From: Candidatus Zixiibacteriota bacterium
GTDB lineage: Bacteria > Zixibacteria > MSB-5A5 > GN15 > JAAZOE01
DNA: 64,000 nt
Reading direction: 5' to 3'
Assembly: GCA_036480375.1 (NCBI GenBank)
Contig: JAZGGI010000021.1
Location: 10,083-74,082, forward strand
Below, one piece after another: positions 1,451-54,750 of this stretch (position 1 is its first letter; each line of letters opens with the position of its first letter). The notes under the pieces were generated by a model. The model saw nothing but the letters and a program-made list of their open reading frames with translations, was not told the DNA's origin and ran no database searches. The position numbers and the translations under genes are program-made.

Positions 1451-2931
1451 TGCGATGTCGCACAGCTCGAATTGTTTTCATAATCTTAATTTTTTCCGCG
1501 GTAATTAGAGCCGATATACTTATCGATCAAATGACCTCCTGGACAAATTTTTCATTTATTACTTCCATCGCTCTCGGCCATGATGTCGTTTATTTCGGAA
1601 CCAGCGAAGGCATCCTGCGCTATAGCCGTATTGAGCATAGGTGGCATCCTCCGATAACCGTCTCAGACGGTCTGTCGGATCCTTATATTCATCGCCTGGC
1701 GGTAACGCCCGACGGCGAAGTCGTGACGGTTCAGACCAATGATGGCGTTTTCACCTATGATGTCATTGTCAAACATTGGTATCTCGAATCGGATTTCCCG
1801 GAAGATTTATTTGTCGATTCCCGGCCCCATCCACCGCTGCCTCTTTTTTTCATGCCTCTCGGGTTTCAAATGTCACCGAACGGATATATTGCCGACAATA
1901 ATTTTCGGGAATATCAAATCACGGCCTATCTGGATGACAATTTCAATACGATTTTCACCGGGACGTGGGGAATGGGGCCGATGCTGATCGATAATGATGA
2001 TTTTTCCGCGCACCTGATGCCGTACGGATTGCTCCAGAAACGAACCGACGTCATTTACATGGAGGGCGATTCCATCTGGCTGGGCGGCAATGGCGGCGAT
2101 CGATATTCCGATGAATTTCATACCCGGCTGGGCGTGACGCTTTATGAAAAATCGAAAGAGGAATTTACCTGGCTGGAACCGCGCTATATTTACGGTTTTG
2201 ATTCGGAAATTATTTTCGATATTGCCGGGGACAGGAATAATCTTTATTTTGCCGGTCTCAACGGCCTGACGATTCATAAACGCAATACCGATCAATATAT
2301 CACTCTCACTCGCCAGAACGGCCTGCCGCAAACCGAGGTGACGGCGCTGGCCGTCGCGCCCGATTCGGTATGGATCGGAACTTATCGAGGGTTGGCGTTC
2401 TATACTCCGTCGGCCGACACGATGGTCACCGTCAGCAAATCGATTCTGGGTAATCTTTTTATTACCGATCTGGAGTTGGCCGACCGCAAGCTCTTTATAG
2501 GTACGACCGACGGCGCTTTTTATATTGATTTTCGGACTCTCGATGTCGGCCGCCTGCAGGACCCGGAAGGCAACCTGGGGGGAGAGATTCGGCATATTTC
2601 AACGCACAAGAACGAAGTTATCATATCATCCAATTCCGGCGTCACGATAATAAATCTGATGACCGAAAAATCCGAACAGCTTCCCTTTATCGATTTTGCT
2701 CTCGGAGCCTATGCCGCTGTCGCCAATGATAAATATTTCGCTATTTCGGTTGAAGACGGCCTGTTGTTATTGACTCGTGATAAGGCGCCCAAACATAATC
2801 ATTTTGATATTGATGACGGGTTGCTTTCCAATCATATCAATGCCATTGTTCCCGACGGCGATTATCTCTGGCTCGGCAGCGAAGAAGGCCTGACGCGATT
2901 CAAATGGATAAATCCGGAGAGGGTGGATTGA
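1450..2931 (+). CDS. Secreted beta-propeller protein with two-component-regulator-propeller (Reg_prop)-like repeats
   Basis: The ATG at 1450 overlaps the upstream stop (TAATG) and gives a signal-peptide-like N-terminus, MRCRTARIVFIILIFSAVIRA. Blade motifs recur: VYFGTSEGILRY, LYFAGLNGLTIH, VWIGTYRGLAFY, LFIGTTDGAFYI, LWLGSEEGLTRF. Confidence 0.6.
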   Translation: MRCRTARIVFIILIFSAVIRADILIDQMTSWTNFSFITSIALGHDVVYFGTSEGILRYSRIEHRWHPPITVSDGLSDPYIHRLAVTPDGEVVTVQTNDGVFTYDVIVKHWYLESDFPEDLFVDSRPHPPLPLFFMPLGFQMSPNGYIADNNFREYQITAYLDDNFNTIFTGTWGMGPMLIDNDDFSAHLMPYGLLQKRTDVIYMEGDSIWLGGNGGDRYSDEFHTRLGVTLYEKSKEEFTWLEPRYIYGFDSEIIFDIAGDRNNLYFAGLNGLTIHKRNTDQYITLTRQNGLPQTEVTALAVAPDSVWIGTYRGLAFYTPSADTMVTVSKSILGNLFITDLELADRKLFIGTTDGAFYIDFRTLDVGRLQDPEGNLGGEIRHISTHKNEVIISSNSGVTIINLMTEKSEQLPFIDFALGAYAAVANDKYFAISVEDGLLLLTRDKAPKHNHFDIDDGLLSNHINAIVPDGDYLWLGSEEGLTRFKWINPERVD

Positions 2932-2937
2932 TAATTT

Positions 2938-2992
2938 GTAGATCGTAACCCATGCGGTTTCGACAATGCGACAACCCGAGGGTTGTCGCTAC
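2938..2992. repeat. REP-doublet-like element (GTAG + imperfect hairpin, then a perfect GC-rich hairpin + CTAC)
   Basis: GTAG at 2938-2941 is followed by the imperfect hairpin cgtaacc/ggtttcg. The hairpin gcgacaaccc-ga-gggttgtcgc at 2968-2989 is followed by CTAC (2989-2992). The head/tail logic matches the elements at 25.7 and 63.3 kb. Confidence 0.4.
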
Positions 2993-3256
2993 ACTGTTCC
3001 CGTGTTCCACGGAATCTCCTCACGATGACATGAGCTTTCGATTTTAATTCGTATCCCCCCCGTTTCGACAAAAATAACTTTACACCATCTCATAAATCCA
3101 TATATTACGCCGACAAAATAAAAAACGACACACCCCGCCGATTTTTCGGTTGGGGCTTTTTGTGCTTTTAAACAGGCGACCGCCTGCTCTCATTTTGAGA
3201 TAGAGGTGGTTGTGTATGCTGCGGTTCTTTTTCAAAGTGGTGAACAGATATAACAA

Positions 3257-6200
3257 GTGGGAATAATGGAAACAACAATGACCAAAAAGACAAAGAGAAC
3301 TCTGCCGTTTATTTTCAAAAAGATATTTACACAATCCGATAGATTTACACTGCTCACCAATGATATAAAAAATGCTTTTGCAAATCAAAATAACGACGCG
3401 GCAATAAATGATAAAAATCATATAAACTTGACCGGTTTGGGCGGCGGCGGAACGGCCTATCTTTTGGCCGGGCTGTACGAAAAGATATCTGGTAATATCC
3501 TGTATGTGACTTCCACCTTTGATGAAGCGCAAAACCTCAATGACGATTTGATCAATCTTATCGGTGAAGATGCCGTTGAGTTCTTCCCCGGTCGTCAGAT
3601 TCCTCCGTATGAATTTCGTTCGCCATCGGGCGAGATAACAGGCCGCAGGTTATCTGCCTTATCAGCCTTGAACAATAATCATAAATCAATCATTGTCGCG
3701 ACCGCTCCGGCGATAATCGAACCGACGGTAGCCAAAGAAACTTTTGAAGCCGAATCACTGCATCTCCGCGTCGGCCTCGAACTCGATCCGAATGAATTGG
3801 CGTTGCGGCTCATCACACTCGGATTCAACCGTGTCGATACCGTTGAGGAAGTCGGCGATTTTGCCGTTCGCGGAGGGTTAATCGATTTCTTTTCGCCGTC
3901 GCACGAGCTACCGATTCGAGCTGAGTTTTTTGGCGATGAGATAGAGTCGCTTCGTCATTTCGATGTTCGCGACCAGCGCACGATAGAAAAATTCGATTCC
4001 ATTGATTTATTGCCTCGCCGCGAAGTTCCCATTAGAGCGGAAACGATTGAAGATCACCTTGAAAAACTGCATGCAAAAGACGCTGATCTGATCCGTGCCC
4101 GATTTCTATCCGAGCCGGACTTGCCCGGTCTGGAATGGCTCGCGGCCGCCTTCGGGATCGCTCGCGGTTCGGTTCTCGATTATCTGAAAGAGGATACTCT
4201 GATAATCCTCGACGGCGGCAGCGCTCTTCTGGGCGATATGAAAGACGCCTACGAAACCGGATCGGAACATTATGATAAAGCAAAAAACCGTTTAGTTAAA
4301 CCTCCCGAAATCGACACTTATTACTACACTCCCGAAGCGCAGTATCATCGCCTGACCAAAAACGTTTGCTGTATTATCCATCCTTTTCGTTCCAGGGAAA
4401 ATGCCCGCTTCGATTTCGGATGCGCCGAACATCCGGCTATCGGCAGCCGCCTTGACTATCTATCCGAAGTCATCGAAAAATACAAAAATCAGGGATACCA
4501 AACCGTCATCACCTGCGACAATAAGGGCCAGGCCGAACGGTTGGCCGAAATTTTGGGCGAGAGAAAAATCAATGTCCCTGTTGAAGTCTTTCACATCCAT
4601 GCCGGGTTCGTCTCGGATGAACTAAAATTCGCTCTTCTAACCGACCATCAGATATTCTCTCGCCGCTTCCGCCGCATCAAACGCCGCCGTTACAAAGAAG
4701 GCGTCGCCCTGACGTCGTATTCAAATCTGAACCAGGGAGATATCGTCGTGCACGCCGATTATGGCCTGGCGCGCTTTTCCAAACTGGAATCAATCACCGT
4801 GGACAGCCGCACCCGCGATTGCCTCCTTTTGATTTACAAAGACGGCGACAAACTGTACGTCCCGATTGAAGAATTCAACCGGGTTTCCAAATATGCCGGC
4901 AAAGACGCCAAACCAAAACTGACCAGCCTCGGTTCGCCAGCCTGGGAAAAAGTAAAGAAGCGAACCAAAAAAGCGCTGGCGGACATGGCCGAGGAATTGT
5001 TGAAATTATACGCCGAGCGGAAAATGAAACCGGGATTCAAATTCGATGAGGATACCGTCTGGCAAAAACAACTCGAGGCTTCGTTTGCCTACGAAGAAAC
5101 TCCCGACCAGATGAAAGCCATCAACGACGTCAAGCGCGATATGCAGACCGATAATCCGGCCGACCGTCTCGTGTGCGGGGATGTCGGATACGGCAAAACC
5201 GAAGTCGCCGTGCGGGCCGCCTTCAAAGCGGTTGAAAACGGTAAGCAGGTAGCGGTACTCGTACCCACGACGATTCTGGCGCAGCAACATTTCAGTACTT
5301 TTTCAAAACGGCTTAAAGAATTCCCGATGCGGATTGAAGTGCTATCACGATTCAAAACCCGAAAAGAGCAGAAAGCGATTATAGAAGATATCGCCGGGGG
5401 TAAGGTCGATATCGTCATCGGGACGCATCGCCTGCTTTCCAAAGATATCTTTTTTGCCGACCTGTGTCTTCTGATCGTTGACGAGGAGCAGCGGTTTGGC
5501 GTGGCGCATAAGGAAAAACTACGCAAACTCAAACAAAATGTCGATACCATTACGCTGACGGCGACGCCGATTCCGCGCACTCTCCAGCTTTCGATGATGG
5601 GCGCGCGCGATATGTCGCTTATCAATACTTCGCCGCGCGACCGCCTTCCGATTCAGACCGAAATTATTGAATTCAATCCTCAGCTTATGGCCGAGGCGAT
5701 CCTGCGTGAAATCGACCGCGATGGCCAGGTTTATTTTGTGCATAACCGCGTGCAGACGATTGAGGCGATGTATCGCTATCTCAAAAAATTCCTGCCGCAG
5801 GTCGAAATCGCCATCGCGCACGGACAGATGCATGAGAGGGAACTGGAAGGCGTCATGCTCGCTTATCTGGCCGGGCGGTTTCAGGTACTGCTGTGCACCT
5901 CGATTATTGAATCGGGTCTCGATATCCCCCGGGTCAATACTATTATAATCAACCGCGCCGACCGTTTTGGTCTGGCACAGCTTTATCAACTCCGGGGACG
6001 AGTCGGGCGTTCGCCCCGGCGAGCTTACGCCTATCTGGTGACCCCGCCGTATCGCCTGATGTCCAACGATGCCCGCAAGCGGATGCGGGCGATTGAAGCC
6101 CATTCCGATCTCGGCTCGGGTTTCGCCTTGGCGATGCGCGATCTGGAAATCCGAGGCGCCGGGCAGATCCTGGGCAAAAAACAATCGGGTTTTATCGAGG

Positions 6201-52277: not shown

Positions 52278-52895
52278 GTGCAAATTGGTATGGTTTATAT
52301 GGATAAAAAACAAGAATATTTTAATTCGATTGCGGAAGATTGGGATAAGGACTTTACGGCCGAGGATATTGAACGGCTGGTGCATATTATCGACAAAATA
52401 AATGTCACCAAAGGCGTTACCGTATGCGATATGGGTTGCGGTACCGGGGTTATGTTTGATATGCTCCGACGCCGGGTCGGCGAAGATGGATATATCGTCG
52501 GAGTTGATTTCGCTCCTCGCGTAGCGCATCGGGCCATGCAAAACTTTCCCTTCCATAATATCGGTGTTGTTGAAGCGTGTGCTGAAGCTTTACCATTCTA
52601 TAAAGATAATTTTGATCTGGTCATCTCATTCGCGGCTTTTGCTCATTTTAGGAAACAAGGTGAGTCTATTCACCAAGCTTACCATATTCTCAAGCCGGGC
52701 GGCCGCCTTGTCATAATTCATCTTTATGGTAGAGAAGAACTTGAACGGCAGCACCATGAAGTGGGCGGTCCGATAGATGACGATAAATTGCCCGACCGCG
52801 ATCATCTGGCCGAAATGTTTCAAAATAGTCATTTCGAGCGGTTTGAATTGACCGAAACGCAGAATCTATATCTGGCCATCGGATATAAGGATTAA
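52278..52895 (+). CDS. Class I SAM-dependent methyltransferase
   Basis: SAM-binding motif I is VCDMGCGTGV, with a downstream LKPGGRLVI. The likely start is MDKKQEYF (52299). Confidence 0.7.
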   Translation: MQIGMVYMDKKQEYFNSIAEDWDKDFTAEDIERLVHIIDKINVTKGVTVCDMGCGTGVMFDMLRRRVGEDGYIVGVDFAPRVAHRAMQNFPFHNIGVVEACAEALPFYKDNFDLVISFAAFAHFRKQGESIHQAYHILKPGGRLVIIHLYGREELERQHHEVGGPIDDDKLPDRDHLAEMFQNSHFERFELTETQNLYLAIGYKD

Positions 52896-53404
52896 TGCGT
52901 CCTTCGGCGAAATTTATCACGCAGACAGCGTTGTTTATTGCTCTGGGTATAGTTTTCCCTATAGTTTTTCATCAATTTGGTCTGGGCGGTCGAATATTTC
53001 TTCCCATGCACATTCCGGTCTTGCTGGCCGGAAGTATCTGCGGCATCTCCTCGGGTTTACTGGTCGGTATTATTTGCCCCGGCTTATCGTTTTTGCTGAC
53101 GGGAATGCCGCCTTCGTATGCCGTCCCTCTTATGACGGCCGAACTTGGATTTATCGGAATAACGGCCGGACTAATTTTTCACAAGTTTAAACTCAATATC
53201 TATATCGCTTTGATAGCGGCCTTGATCGTCGGTCGTCTTGGGTTCGCTCTGGCTCTGTTGGGACTGAGCCTTTTTCTTGATATGCCTTACGGACTCCCGG
53301 AATATTTCGGGGGAGCGGTAATCACCGGCATTCCCGGTATCGCCGTTCAATTGATTATTATTCCGCCGATAGTCGCGGCTATCAAACGGCGGGACGGTAA
53401 TTAG
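52895..53404 (+). CDS. Polytopic membrane protein, ECF-transporter S-component-like
   Basis: 169-aa ORF with ~5 TM helices. The N-terminus KFITQTALFIALGIVFPIVFH resembles ECF substrate-capture subunits. Its start overlaps the methyltransferase stop. Confidence 0.45.
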   Translation: MRPSAKFITQTALFIALGIVFPIVFHQFGLGGRIFLPMHIPVLLAGSICGISSGLLVGIICPGLSFLLTGMPPSYAVPLMTAELGFIGITAGLIFHKFKLNIYIALIAALIVGRLGFALALLGLSLFLDMPYGLPEYFGGAVITGIPGIAVQLIIIPPIVAAIKRRDGN

Positions 53405-53429: not shown

Positions 53430-54503
53430 ATGAAAGCAGCTATAATAAACTCCCGGCAATCGGCTTATCCCGTTGGCGATGATTTGTGGGTTCAAAAAAC
53501 CCTGCGGGCCGTGGAATACCTGGCCGGTCGCCAATATACAATCGTTACTTCAATCGGCTTAAATACCTGGGAATTGGTTTTAGCTCTCGCCTCACAATAT
53601 AAAGCGGAAGTTAATATAATCATGCCTGCCCAAAAATATGAGACCGGCCTTGAGGAAAAAATTATTAATGATTTCAAACTTGATTCGAAGCGCGTGTGGT
53701 TTCTAAAATCCGATGAGTTAATACCTGAAAAAAGACAAAGACTTTTATCACGTGATAAAGCCGTAATCGATTTGGCTGATATTCTTGTTCCAATTTCAAT
53801 CCGACCGAGCGGAAATATGGTATATCTTTTAGATTGCAGTAAGGACAAAATTTTTTCCCGTTACCAAATTCCTTATCAGAAAAGCCGTCGTCGGCCAAGC
53901 TATAAAATCATTAAGTTAAATCCGGAATTATCAGATGGAAAATGGCTCGTTCATTTCACTCGCAGCGGCAAATTTCCCTGGCCGGGATTGACATCTTTTG
54001 AGTTTTATCACTCGATGATTTCATCCGGCAAAGAATATTGCCAGTCAGCGCACAATGTCCTTGTTCGAATTCTCGAGAGCAGGATTATCAGGGCCAGTAA
54101 TAATAATATCGCCGATGGCTCATACGTTGTTGGATTTTCAAATCTGATTAATGTTGATCCCGCCGAGATTTTTAGATATCGCTCTCGATTGGTTAATCCA
54201 TATTTCGAACCATACGGTCTGGCAATCTCAACCGATTATGTGAGTAAACATGGAATCTCTCCGGTGATTTACGGGGATAGGCATCTTTACGATACTCTTG
54301 ATGGTGATAAACGATCCTTTTTTCAATCCAGAGGCAAAAAGAATCAATGGGTCGGTGAAAATGAGTGGCGGCATATCGGTGATTTTGTATTTGACAATAT
54401 TCCGCCGGACCATCTTCGAATTATTGTTCCGAATCAGAAAGAAGTAAATGAATTTCAGGCTATGTCCAGTATTCCGGTGATCCCGCTCGATTTTACAGAA
54501 TAA
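53430..54503 (+). CDS. Fusion protein: DprA/Smf-like (SLOG-type Rossmann) N-domain plus AbiGi-like C-domain
   Basis: 357-aa ORF.
- N-half: TIVTSIGLNTWELVLALA...VNIIMPA...LSRDKAVIDLADILVPISIRPSGNM parallels the DprA pattern (SGxAxGiD..AH...RNRIIagLsd.vlVvEa..kSGsl).
- C-half: WLVHFTRS, LVRILESRIIRAS, VVGFSNL and EPYGLAISTDYVSKHGISPVIYG parallel the AbiGi (PF10899-type) pattern as I remember it. Confidence 0.45.
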   Translation: MKAAIINSRQSAYPVGDDLWVQKTLRAVEYLAGRQYTIVTSIGLNTWELVLALASQYKAEVNIIMPAQKYETGLEEKIINDFKLDSKRVWFLKSDELIPEKRQRLLSRDKAVIDLADILVPISIRPSGNMVYLLDCSKDKIFSRYQIPYQKSRRRPSYKIIKLNPELSDGKWLVHFTRSGKFPWPGLTSFEFYHSMISSGKEYCQSAHNVLVRILESRIIRASNNNIADGSYVVGFSNLINVDPAEIFRYRSRLVNPYFEPYGLAISTDYVSKHGISPVIYGDRHLYDTLDGDKRSFFQSRGKKNQWVGENEWRHIGDFVFDNIPPDHLRIIVPNQKEVNEFQAMSSIPVIPLDFTE

Positions 54504-54663
54504 ATTACCCGGATTCAAAGTTGCAGTTTTAATCACAAAAATAATATGGAGTTATAAATTTTGAAGAACGATATGCCCCTGAGTAAGCTATTAATTAAAC
54601 GATTCTTCCTCAAAATCCGCAGGAAAAGTTTGTGAAAAAAATAACAAATGGCGTTAAAATAAC

Positions 54664-54691
54664 TTGACAACAAACTCTCACAAAATATATT
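54664..54691 (+). promoter_or_regulatory. Candidate sigma70-type promoter for the atp operon
   Basis: TTGACA (54664-54669), a 16-nt spacer, then TATATT (54686-54691), about 60 nt upstream of the first atp-associated ORF. Confidence 0.3.
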
Positions 54692-54750
54692 TCCCCCTTG
54701 TAATATCGGGGCTGAAGCCCGTGCGGTAATATGGTGAAATCTGTAAACCT

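Follow-up and report, generated by a model that had tools for sequence, protein, structure and literature searches.

The 64,000-nt stretch analysed here, below called the window, comes from a Candidatus Zixiibacteriota bacterium and contains, between menaquinone-associated genes and the atp operon, an open reading frame (ORF) whose product combines two domains: an N-terminal domain of the SLOG superfamily that resembles DprA in its predicted fold, and a C-terminal domain whose homology to AbiGi (PF10899) was established by comparing sequence profiles. Both kinds of domain are known; new, in that they are not described in anything searchable, are the joining of the two in one chain, the size of the family with this architecture, and its fixation in a core genome. 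The sequence-only reading of this DNA had called the domain combination unfamiliar, and indeed no description of it was found in the literature searched, the coverage of which excluded the 2015 SLOG and ART papers of the Aravind laboratory. Our favoured reading, which we hold with considerable reserve, is that the protein could be a soluble, single-chain chromosomal enzyme with an NAD+-using C-domain of the ADP-ribosyltransferase (ART) type and a DprA-like N-domain that would select the substrate, in a regulated role that is not that of a toxin–antitoxin (TA) system. The whole case is built on homology, predicted structure, and gene order. The ORF and its two domains are located as follows:

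53430..54503, + strand: two-domain SLOG(DprA-like)–AbiGi-like ORF with an ATG start, 357 aa (ORF list)
53430..53879, + strand: predicted Rossmannoid domain of the SLOG superfamily with a DprA-like fold, residues 1 to ~150 (Foldseek against the PDB)
53925..54485, + strand: AbiGi-like domain, putatively of the ART superfamily, residues 166-352 (hhalign, Pfam, PADLOC, and the structure model)

The coordinates and the strand of the ORF match the earlier reading exactly, and all of the motif strings quoted in it are present in the translation (TIVTSIGLNTWE, NIIMPA, LSRDKAVIDLADILVPISIRPSGNM, LVHFT, LVRILESRIIRAS, VVGFS, PYGLAIS, and HGISPVIYG). A hypothetical protein recorded for a metagenome-assembled genome (MAG) of candidate division Zixibacteria has the identical sequence (100%). 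The full-length AlphaFold2 model has a predicted local distance difference test value (pLDDT) of 91.7 and a predicted template modelling score (pTM) of 0.86, the latter indicating a confident overall two-domain model.

Knowledge of AbiGi dates back to the 1990s. Single-sequence searches of the window protein against Pfam, NCBIfam, PADLOC, and the PDB yielded marginal AbiGi matches and nothing else. The match to PF10899 reached 11.4-11.5 bits (E ~0.3), below the Pfam gathering threshold of 22.4 bits, so the window protein does not formally qualify for Pfam membership, and the match to the PADLOC AbiGi model had an E value of 0.02. Among 40 diverse C-domains of the family, AbiGi was the top Pfam family at E<1 for 12 (best E=5.1e-5) and the top PADLOC family for 10 (best E=5e-6); DUF2971 came out as a weak second Pfam family, matched by 2 of the 40 (E=0.033). 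In a search of 5.8 billion sequences, the C-domain profile reached an AbiGi-family protein from Kribbella at E=4.5e-4, and this protein (P0219) itself passes the Pfam AbiGi threshold with 25.5 bits. When compared by hhalign with P0219 alone, the C-domains scored 98.1% (E=9e-14), and with an alignment of 28 AbiGi sequences they scored 99.3% over 150 columns (E=7.3e-21), with H-x-T, F-E-P-Y-G, P-V-x-Y, and E-x-E-W-R..G-D paired with residues that are invariant in AbiGi. The unrelated E. coli protein YagK (PF11726), used as a negative control, scored 0.13%. This profile–profile alignment bears out the AbiGi likeness that the sequence-only reading had seen in the C-terminal half.

Residue conservation was counted over 137 diverse family members. 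The conserved elements of the C-domain, together with an insert relative to AbiGi, are:

53952..53960, + strand: H175-F-T177, putative ART motif I on the first strand; H175 in 137/137 and T177 in 134/137 members, aligned with AbiGi H20 and T22
53967-54029, + strand: family-specific insert of ~20 residues relative to AbiGi (residues 180-200), following the H-x-T strand, with conserved W184, P185, E187, and Y193 (PWPGE..YY)
54207..54218, + strand: E260-P261-Y262-G263 (FEPYG), core motif common with AbiGi; E260 and P261 each in 137/137, aligned to AbiGi F..YG
54261..54272, + strand: P278-V279-x-Y281, with the putative ART motif II tyrosine; Y281 in 137/137, aligned with AbiGi P113-V114-W115-Y116
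54357..54371, + strand: E310-x-E312-W-R314, putative ART motif III (E-x-E); E310 in 136/137, E312 and R314 each in 137/137, aligned with AbiGi E182-R-E184-W-R186

The usual arrangement in ARTs is a histidine, a tyrosine, and a glutamate on strands, the E-x-E motif having its second glutamate at the start of a strand. In the model of the window protein, H175 is situated on a strand formed by residues 172-176 and Y281 on a strand formed by residues 280-282, while E312 opens a strand (312-316) and E310 precedes it by two residues in a loop. The three-motif ART constellation (H/R; Y/S-T-S; E or E-x-E) is thus encountered on strands in order, here as H, Y, and E-x-E, and each motif is present in at least 136 of the 137 members; this is a match of patterns, from which the C-domain may be read as an intact and presumably catalytic enzyme. 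A model of the C-domain alone has a pLDDT of 92.1. AbiGi has been listed among the ART families, and DUF2971, with an H-Y-ExE active site, has been described as similar to AbiGi and DarT; the DNA-acting DarT and the scabin-like ARTs are regarded as the nearest relatives of AbiGi and DUF2971 (PMC12522546). The suggestion that the AbiGi half is antitoxin-like did not survive, given this listing and the essentially invariant H, Y, and E-x-E residues. Concerning the occurrence of such domains elsewhere, 11 of the 40 C-domains match the uncharacterised phage protein family phrog_13416 (best E=9e-5), and Bacillus phage G, phage SP-15, mimivirus, and tupanvirus contributed uncharacterised proteins as marginal fold matches; large viruses thus probably encode AbiGi-like domains.

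The best PDB matches of the full-length model all fall on the N-terminal half and all belong to the SLOG superfamily. The top of the list is occupied by DprA of H. pylori and S. pneumoniae (4ljk, 4ljr, 5mll, and 3uqz; E=1.4e-5 to 7e-4, probability 1.0), with best alignments of ~150-160 columns at 16-18% identity and target-normalised TM scores of 0.45-0.50, and by ShosA (8zva, E=6e-5), a DprA-like, single-stranded DNA (ssDNA)-binding protein (PMC11961720). YpsA (2nx2), LOG/YvdD (1t35/5zbj), TM1055, and the molybdenum cofactor (Moco) carrier protein 2iz7 were also among the top 20. Sequence methods see nothing of this likeness, including a PDB profile search with the N-domain, in which DprA was not found. 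The earlier assignment of the N-half to DprA/SLOG thus stands for the predicted fold and fails for the sequence profiles (Pfam, PDB profile, and hhalign).

The ssDNA-binding signatures of DprA are G-S/T/A-R and F/L/Y-x-x-R-N/D, which are distinct from the LOG motif PGGxGTxxE (HpDprA paper, PMC3950713). The N-domain contains candidates for DprA-like motifs, and they follow the DprA order:

53448..53459, + strand: N7-S8-R9-Q10, loop after strand 1 at the presumed position of DprA G-S/T/A-R; S8 in 136/137, R9 in 105/137, Q10 in 125/137
53550..53573, + strand: S41-x-G43-x-x-T46-W47-E48 (TSIGLNTWE), with the spacing of DprA SGxAxGID (compared by eye with E. coli Smf)
53742..53756, + strand: [W/M/L]105-x-x-R108-D109 in a helix, presumed counterpart of the DprA base-pocket motif F/L/Y-x-x-R-N/D; R108 in 136/137, D109 in 137/137

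The positional match is one of sequence, not of structural superposition. In the second motif, S41 is found in 124 of the 137 members, G43 in 119, W47 in 119 (tyrosine in another 18), and E48 in 112 (aspartate in another 19). The invariant N-domain residues include S8, W20, R108, and D109, at the presumed positions of the DprA base- and phosphate-binding motifs. The LOG motif PGGxGTxxE is absent from the N-domain, and the nearest string, S-x-G-x-N-T-W-E, has the DprA spacing. As judged from the model, the N-domain is DprA-like in fold and layout, without being a demonstrable member of the DprA family. A weak Smf match elsewhere in the window (2053..2457) is situated inside a propeller-like protein and was dismissed as a DprA candidate.

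A word-indexed search retrieved only 29 relatives, all of roughly full length and none with a Pfam domain. An exhaustive profile search against 1.84 billion representatives (clustered at 50% identity) uncovered 2,098 clusters at E≤1e-3 and 1,271 clusters at E≤1e-30, and all of the top 150 matches cover both halves of the profile. With ~2,100 cluster representatives and two domains throughout the top 150, the fusion is the normal state of a large family, and the two-domain layout is not due to chance. The family has no name in Pfam, NCBIfam, or PADLOC. The species-representative genomes that carry it are mostly Zixibacteria, the others being labelled Ignavibacteria, FCB group, Planctomycetota, Acidobacteriota, and Fibrobacterota, and partial family proteins are on record from Desulfomonilaceae and Syntrophobacteraceae MAGs. 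Two apparent deviations from the common architecture turned out to be artefacts. A seemingly standalone C-domain (P0193, L031:4567-5699) derives from a full-length gene that is frameshifted or misassembled and split into ORFs of 129 aa and 232 aa, the upstream piece being the beginning of the N-domain. A seemingly longer protein of 659 aa (P0115, L004:1886-3865) results from a mis-called start on a high-GC contig; the extension, a low-complexity stretch of ~290 residues with abundant Arg, Pro, and Gly, precedes an internal Met.

The gene order MenE, thioesterase, methyltransferase, energy-coupling factor (ECF) S-component, family gene, and atp operon is retained in 10 distinct genomes of the Zixibacteria clade. 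The syntenic family proteins are 41-72% identical to the window protein, compared with 58-87% for AtpB. The family protein diverges about like MenE (41-46% versus 35-44% identity), the corresponding values being 58-75% for AtpB and 86-96% for AtpE. With this stable synteny and MenE-like divergence, the pattern resembles that of a vertically inherited gene under purifying selection. Members with ≤38% identity are located in other, lineage-specific frames and have no partner gene in common. A second conserved frame was seen in another clade of the Zixibacteria type (L118, L119, and L120), where the family gene (+) lies between genes for a NosD-like beta-helix protein (−) and a large Peptidase_S8 (−), followed by DUF6125 (+). 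Of this frame, L022 retains only Peptidase_S8 and DUF6125, and the divergent adjacent gene there encodes an RtcB RNA ligase instead; in all four loci the family gene is situated at ~5.9-7.1 kb.

Genes for AbiGii, macrodomain, NADAR, or TIR proteins were not found adjacent to the family gene in the window or in ~30 related loci. The earlier statement that no AbiGii-like gene is adjacent thus holds for the window, where every flanking ORF was assigned to other families. The nearest clade of standalone AbiGi proteins (84 loci), examined as a Rosetta-stone test, has neither a SLOG-like neighbour nor any recurring partner, and the absence of AbiGii is therefore not unusual. In Kribbella and one close relative (L034:4001-5367 and L038:122-1494), the standalone AbiGi gene is convergent with a NADAR gene, with an overlap of 4 nt in L034. 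Such an arrangement would fit ART chemistry; as general evidence the NADAR link was discarded, because it was observed in 2 of the 84 standalone loci and is absent near the family.

In six loci, representing at least four synteny frames, the family gene is directly preceded by genes for divalent-metal importers in the same orientation:

L018:4114-5964 and L031:~2792-4558, same strand as the family gene: Nramp importer plus Usp
L118:5095-5859, same strand as the family gene: ZIP importer
L120:1767-5774, L017:1113-4807, and L030:1-2086, same strand as the family gene: ZnuA/ZnuC/ABC-3 importer of the Tro type

These importers are non-homologous, and their type is swapped within a frame (ZIP, ZnuABC, or none in one frame; ZnuABC or Nramp plus Usp in another). 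One ZnuABC/Tro-type importer set carries a fused DtxR-like Fe_dep_repr_C domain. The clade of the window has the ECF S-component upstream in place of a metal importer. From gene order alone, a co-regulation with metal or oxidative stress might be suspected in some lineages.

In the reading that we favour, the C-domain would bind NAD+ and transfer ADP-ribose, as the published classifications of AbiGi, DUF2971, and DarT suggest, while the pocket of the N-domain might hold single-stranded nucleic acid or a nucleotide and thereby select or present the substrate. The result would be a DarT-like reaction from one polypeptide, that is, ADP-ribosylation of the kind that DarT carries out on ssDNA bases. 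The lack of an eraser (macrodomain or NADAR) and of AbiGii in the vicinity, together with the fixed position among core operons, points to a regulated chromosomal role in place of a TA or mobile abortive infection (Abi) function. Such a role could consist in the marking of nucleic acids or in a stress response, possibly to metal or oxidative stress where importers lie upstream. We give a quite small chance to a bolder version, according to which the family would represent the first non-conflict, chromosomally fixed ART of the DarT/AbiGi type: like a PARP, it would sense exposed ssDNA or RNA via the DprA-like domain, mark it with ADP-ribose via the ART domain, and belong to a programme by which Zixibacteria and allied uncultured phyla cope with stress (metal limitation or oxidative stress). 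If true, this PARP-like version would reveal the biochemical activity of AbiGi.

Several observations weigh against the favoured reading. The C-domain model has no significant match to a solved ART (Foldseek against the PDB, best E=0.69), and the ARTs exotoxin A, pertussis toxin S1, and CopC appear only among the noise (E=3-9, TM scores of 0.19-0.29); nor was any sequence link of the C-domain or of AbiGi to solved ARTs found. The ART activity of AbiGi itself is predicted from classification, and a 2026 review describes AbiGi as being without similarity to proteins of known function (PMC13064643). The C-domain results agree with this review as well as with the ART listing (PMC12522546). For the N-domain, a Pfam match to DprA was obtained for none of 28 members, nor for the window protein, the hhalign comparison with E. 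coli Smf scored 0.14%, and R9, the counterpart of the key residue Arg52 of DprA, is present in just 105 of the 137 members. The class of the target, be it DNA, RNA, protein, or a small molecule, is wholly inferred. Finally, the patchy spread over phyla and some PADLOC matches among neighbours would be compatible with a role in conflict.

The last point leads to the view, close to that taken in the sequence-only reading, that the gene is a one-gene Abi or defence module. The SLOG domain would then sense a nucleotide-derived signal or phage DNA and switch on an ART effector that damages nucleic acid of the host or the phage. Several observations are in line with it: AbiGi, to which the C-domain is homologous, forms part of a lactococcal Abi system that is proven, SLOG domains serve as sensors in Thoeris (the ThsA SLOG senses cyclic ADP-ribose, cADPR), a defence TA system includes the DprA-like ShosA, and the phage family phrog_13416 is matched by 11 of 40 members, while 5 of 40 weakly match the PADLOC single-gene candidate PDC-S31 (E=0.014). 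The family is spread patchily, and a few neighbours in non-syntenic loci match mad2, mad3, and mad8. The genomic context argues against it and leads us to consider it unlikely: in 10 genomes, with identities as low as 41%, the gene is found at the same place between housekeeping operons, there is no recurring defence partner, none of ~30 loci has a signal-producing partner (TIR or cyclase) or AbiGii next to the gene, and IMG/VR viral contigs yielded no copy. In addition, the closest fold to that of the N-domain is found in DprA and not in the cADPR-sensing YpsA/ThsA type. The nucleotide-sensing part of the sequence-only reading may nevertheless hold. As for the neighbours, PADLOC matches were obtained for a minority of 125 neighbour proteins of family loci, mostly with generic models; strong ones were observed in non-syntenic loci for mad3 (4.6e-34), mad2 (3.7e-19), and mad8 (9.1e-16), with at most two proteins each.

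The upstream metal importers would be accommodated by a small-molecule enzyme of a stress or metal regulon, in which the ART-like domain cleaves NAD+ or transfers ADP-ribose from it, and the SLOG domain binds or hydrolyses the product, with no involvement of nucleic acid. According to one proposal, SLOG domains recognise ADP-ribose derivatives or cleave them (PMC9503650), LOG and the Moco carrier protein are among the fold matches, and DUF2971 genes sometimes occur with iron permeases (PMC12522546). However, the LOG catalytic motif is absent and the layout follows DprA; the window clade has a vitamin-type ECF S-component upstream and no metal importer, and the link to metals is one of gene order alone, so that this explanation, too, appears improbable to us. 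Many bacterial ARTs modify proteins, and the intact H, Y, and E-x-E constellation and the core-genome location would suit a DraT-like regulator with the N-domain as a nucleotide-responsive regulatory module. We regard a protein target as very unlikely, with DNA-acting DarT and scabin-like ARTs as the nearest relatives of AbiGi/DUF2971 (PMC12522546), nucleic acid-binding proteins as the closest structural relatives of the fused domain, and no candidate target gene consistently adjacent. It would be more surprising still if the protein were the DprA ortholog of this lineage, mediating recombination in transformation and bearing a non-catalytic C-domain of an unusual kind. DprA is the top fold match, candidate DprA-like motifs occur at matching positions, and a canonical dprA gene was not found within the 64-kb window; yet there is no sequence similarity to DprA, the C-domain retains invariant, catalytic-looking residues, and the sterile alpha motif (SAM) and winged-helix accessory domains of DprA are absent.

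The neighbourhood in the window is as described earlier, with menaquinone-associated genes on the 5' side and the atp operon on the 3' side. According to Pfam and NCBIfam, the upstream genes encode a MenE-like AMP-ligase, a 4HBT thioesterase (gene on the opposite strand), a UbiE/MenG-like S-adenosylmethionine-dependent methyltransferase, and the ECF S-component, and the downstream genes encode ATPase_gene1 (AtpZ), AtpI, AtpB, AtpE, and AtpF. The features adjoining the ORF are:

52278..52895, + strand: class I S-adenosylmethionine-dependent methyltransferase (Pfam, NCBIfam)
52895..53404, + strand: ECF S-component (Pfam, NCBIfam), ending 25 nt before the ORF
54664..54691, + strand: predicted sigma-70-like promoter (TTGACA, 16 nt, TATATT; consensus scan, 11/12 positions)

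The methyltransferase and ECF S-component genes share one base (52895) and are paired in all syntenic genomes, beside menaquinone genes. The S-component is of the vitamin type, its similarity to RibU and FolT being weak. The AT-rich gap noted earlier on the 3' side of the family gene exists and comprises 247 nt (54504..54750), while its AT-richness is mild (GC ~0.37 versus ~0.41 within the gene). The near-consensus promoter is situated 60 nt upstream of atpZ (54751), at a place where it could serve the atp operon, and a terminator-like hairpin was not found on the + strand of the gap. In view of the promoter, the missing hairpin, and the mild AT-richness, the gap is ordinary. The promoter deserves mention for being of the sigma-70 type in a phylum, Zixibacteria, the promoters of which have been little studied.

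An AbiGi core with an apparently intact ART-type site is joined here to a domain whose closest structural relatives bind ssDNA. The fusion provides a testable guess, namely that AbiGi-type domains might act on nucleic acid, using NAD+. Characterisation of a large unannotated family with a fixed place in an uncultured phylum's core genome would fill an annotation gap and may show that a domain known from phage defence only also has a housekeeping or stress-related use. The recurrent placement beside Mn/Zn/Fe importers is a further lead.

Comparison with known systems places the family between several of them. In structure, the N-domain matches DprA/Smf (PF02481) and ShosA best, and it has conserved residues at the presumed positions of both ssDNA motifs of DprA; it differs in being shorter, in having no SAM and C-terminal domains and no detectable sequence homology, and in that the motif-1 arginine is not invariant. 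DprA acts together with RecA, and ShosA, an antitoxin, pairs with ShosT, whereas the N-domain of the family is fused to an enzyme-like domain. The combination of an NAD+-using domain with SLOG in one polypeptide follows the same logic as ThsA of type I Thoeris (SIR2–SLOG). In ThsA, however, the catalytic SIR2 domain is N-terminal, the SLOG domain, which senses cADPR and belongs to a different clade, is C-terminal, and a TIR partner, ThsB, is required, whereas no ThsB-like TIR, SIR2, or transmembrane effector was found among the neighbours of the family.

DarT (PF14487; DarTG, DarT–NADAR), an ART that ADP-ribosylates ssDNA bases and that has been linked in the literature to AbiGi/DUF2971, is proposed as a working analogy. 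No direct match to DarT in sequence or fold was obtained, there is no macrodomain or NADAR antitoxin near the family gene, and the recognition of ssDNA would in the family come from a separate, fused domain. AbiGi (PF10899), encoded by the first gene of the lactococcal two-gene AbiG system, is homologous over its whole domain to the C-terminal 185 residues of the family, and the two share H-x-T, F-x-P-Y-G, P-V-x-Y, and E-x-E-W-R..G-D; AbiGi lacks the N-terminal SLOG domain and the PWPGE..YY insert of ~20 residues that are present in the family. The AbiG system is located on plasmids or islands and has AbiGii as a partner, whereas the family gene belongs to the core genome and is without AbiGii. 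Finally, DUF2971 (PF11185), a predicted ART of the H-Y-E clade, has the invariant tyrosine and the E-x-E motif as in the family; the similarity to DUF2971 is much weaker than that to AbiGi, and the motif I histidine is poorly conserved in DUF2971, whereas H175 is invariant in the family.

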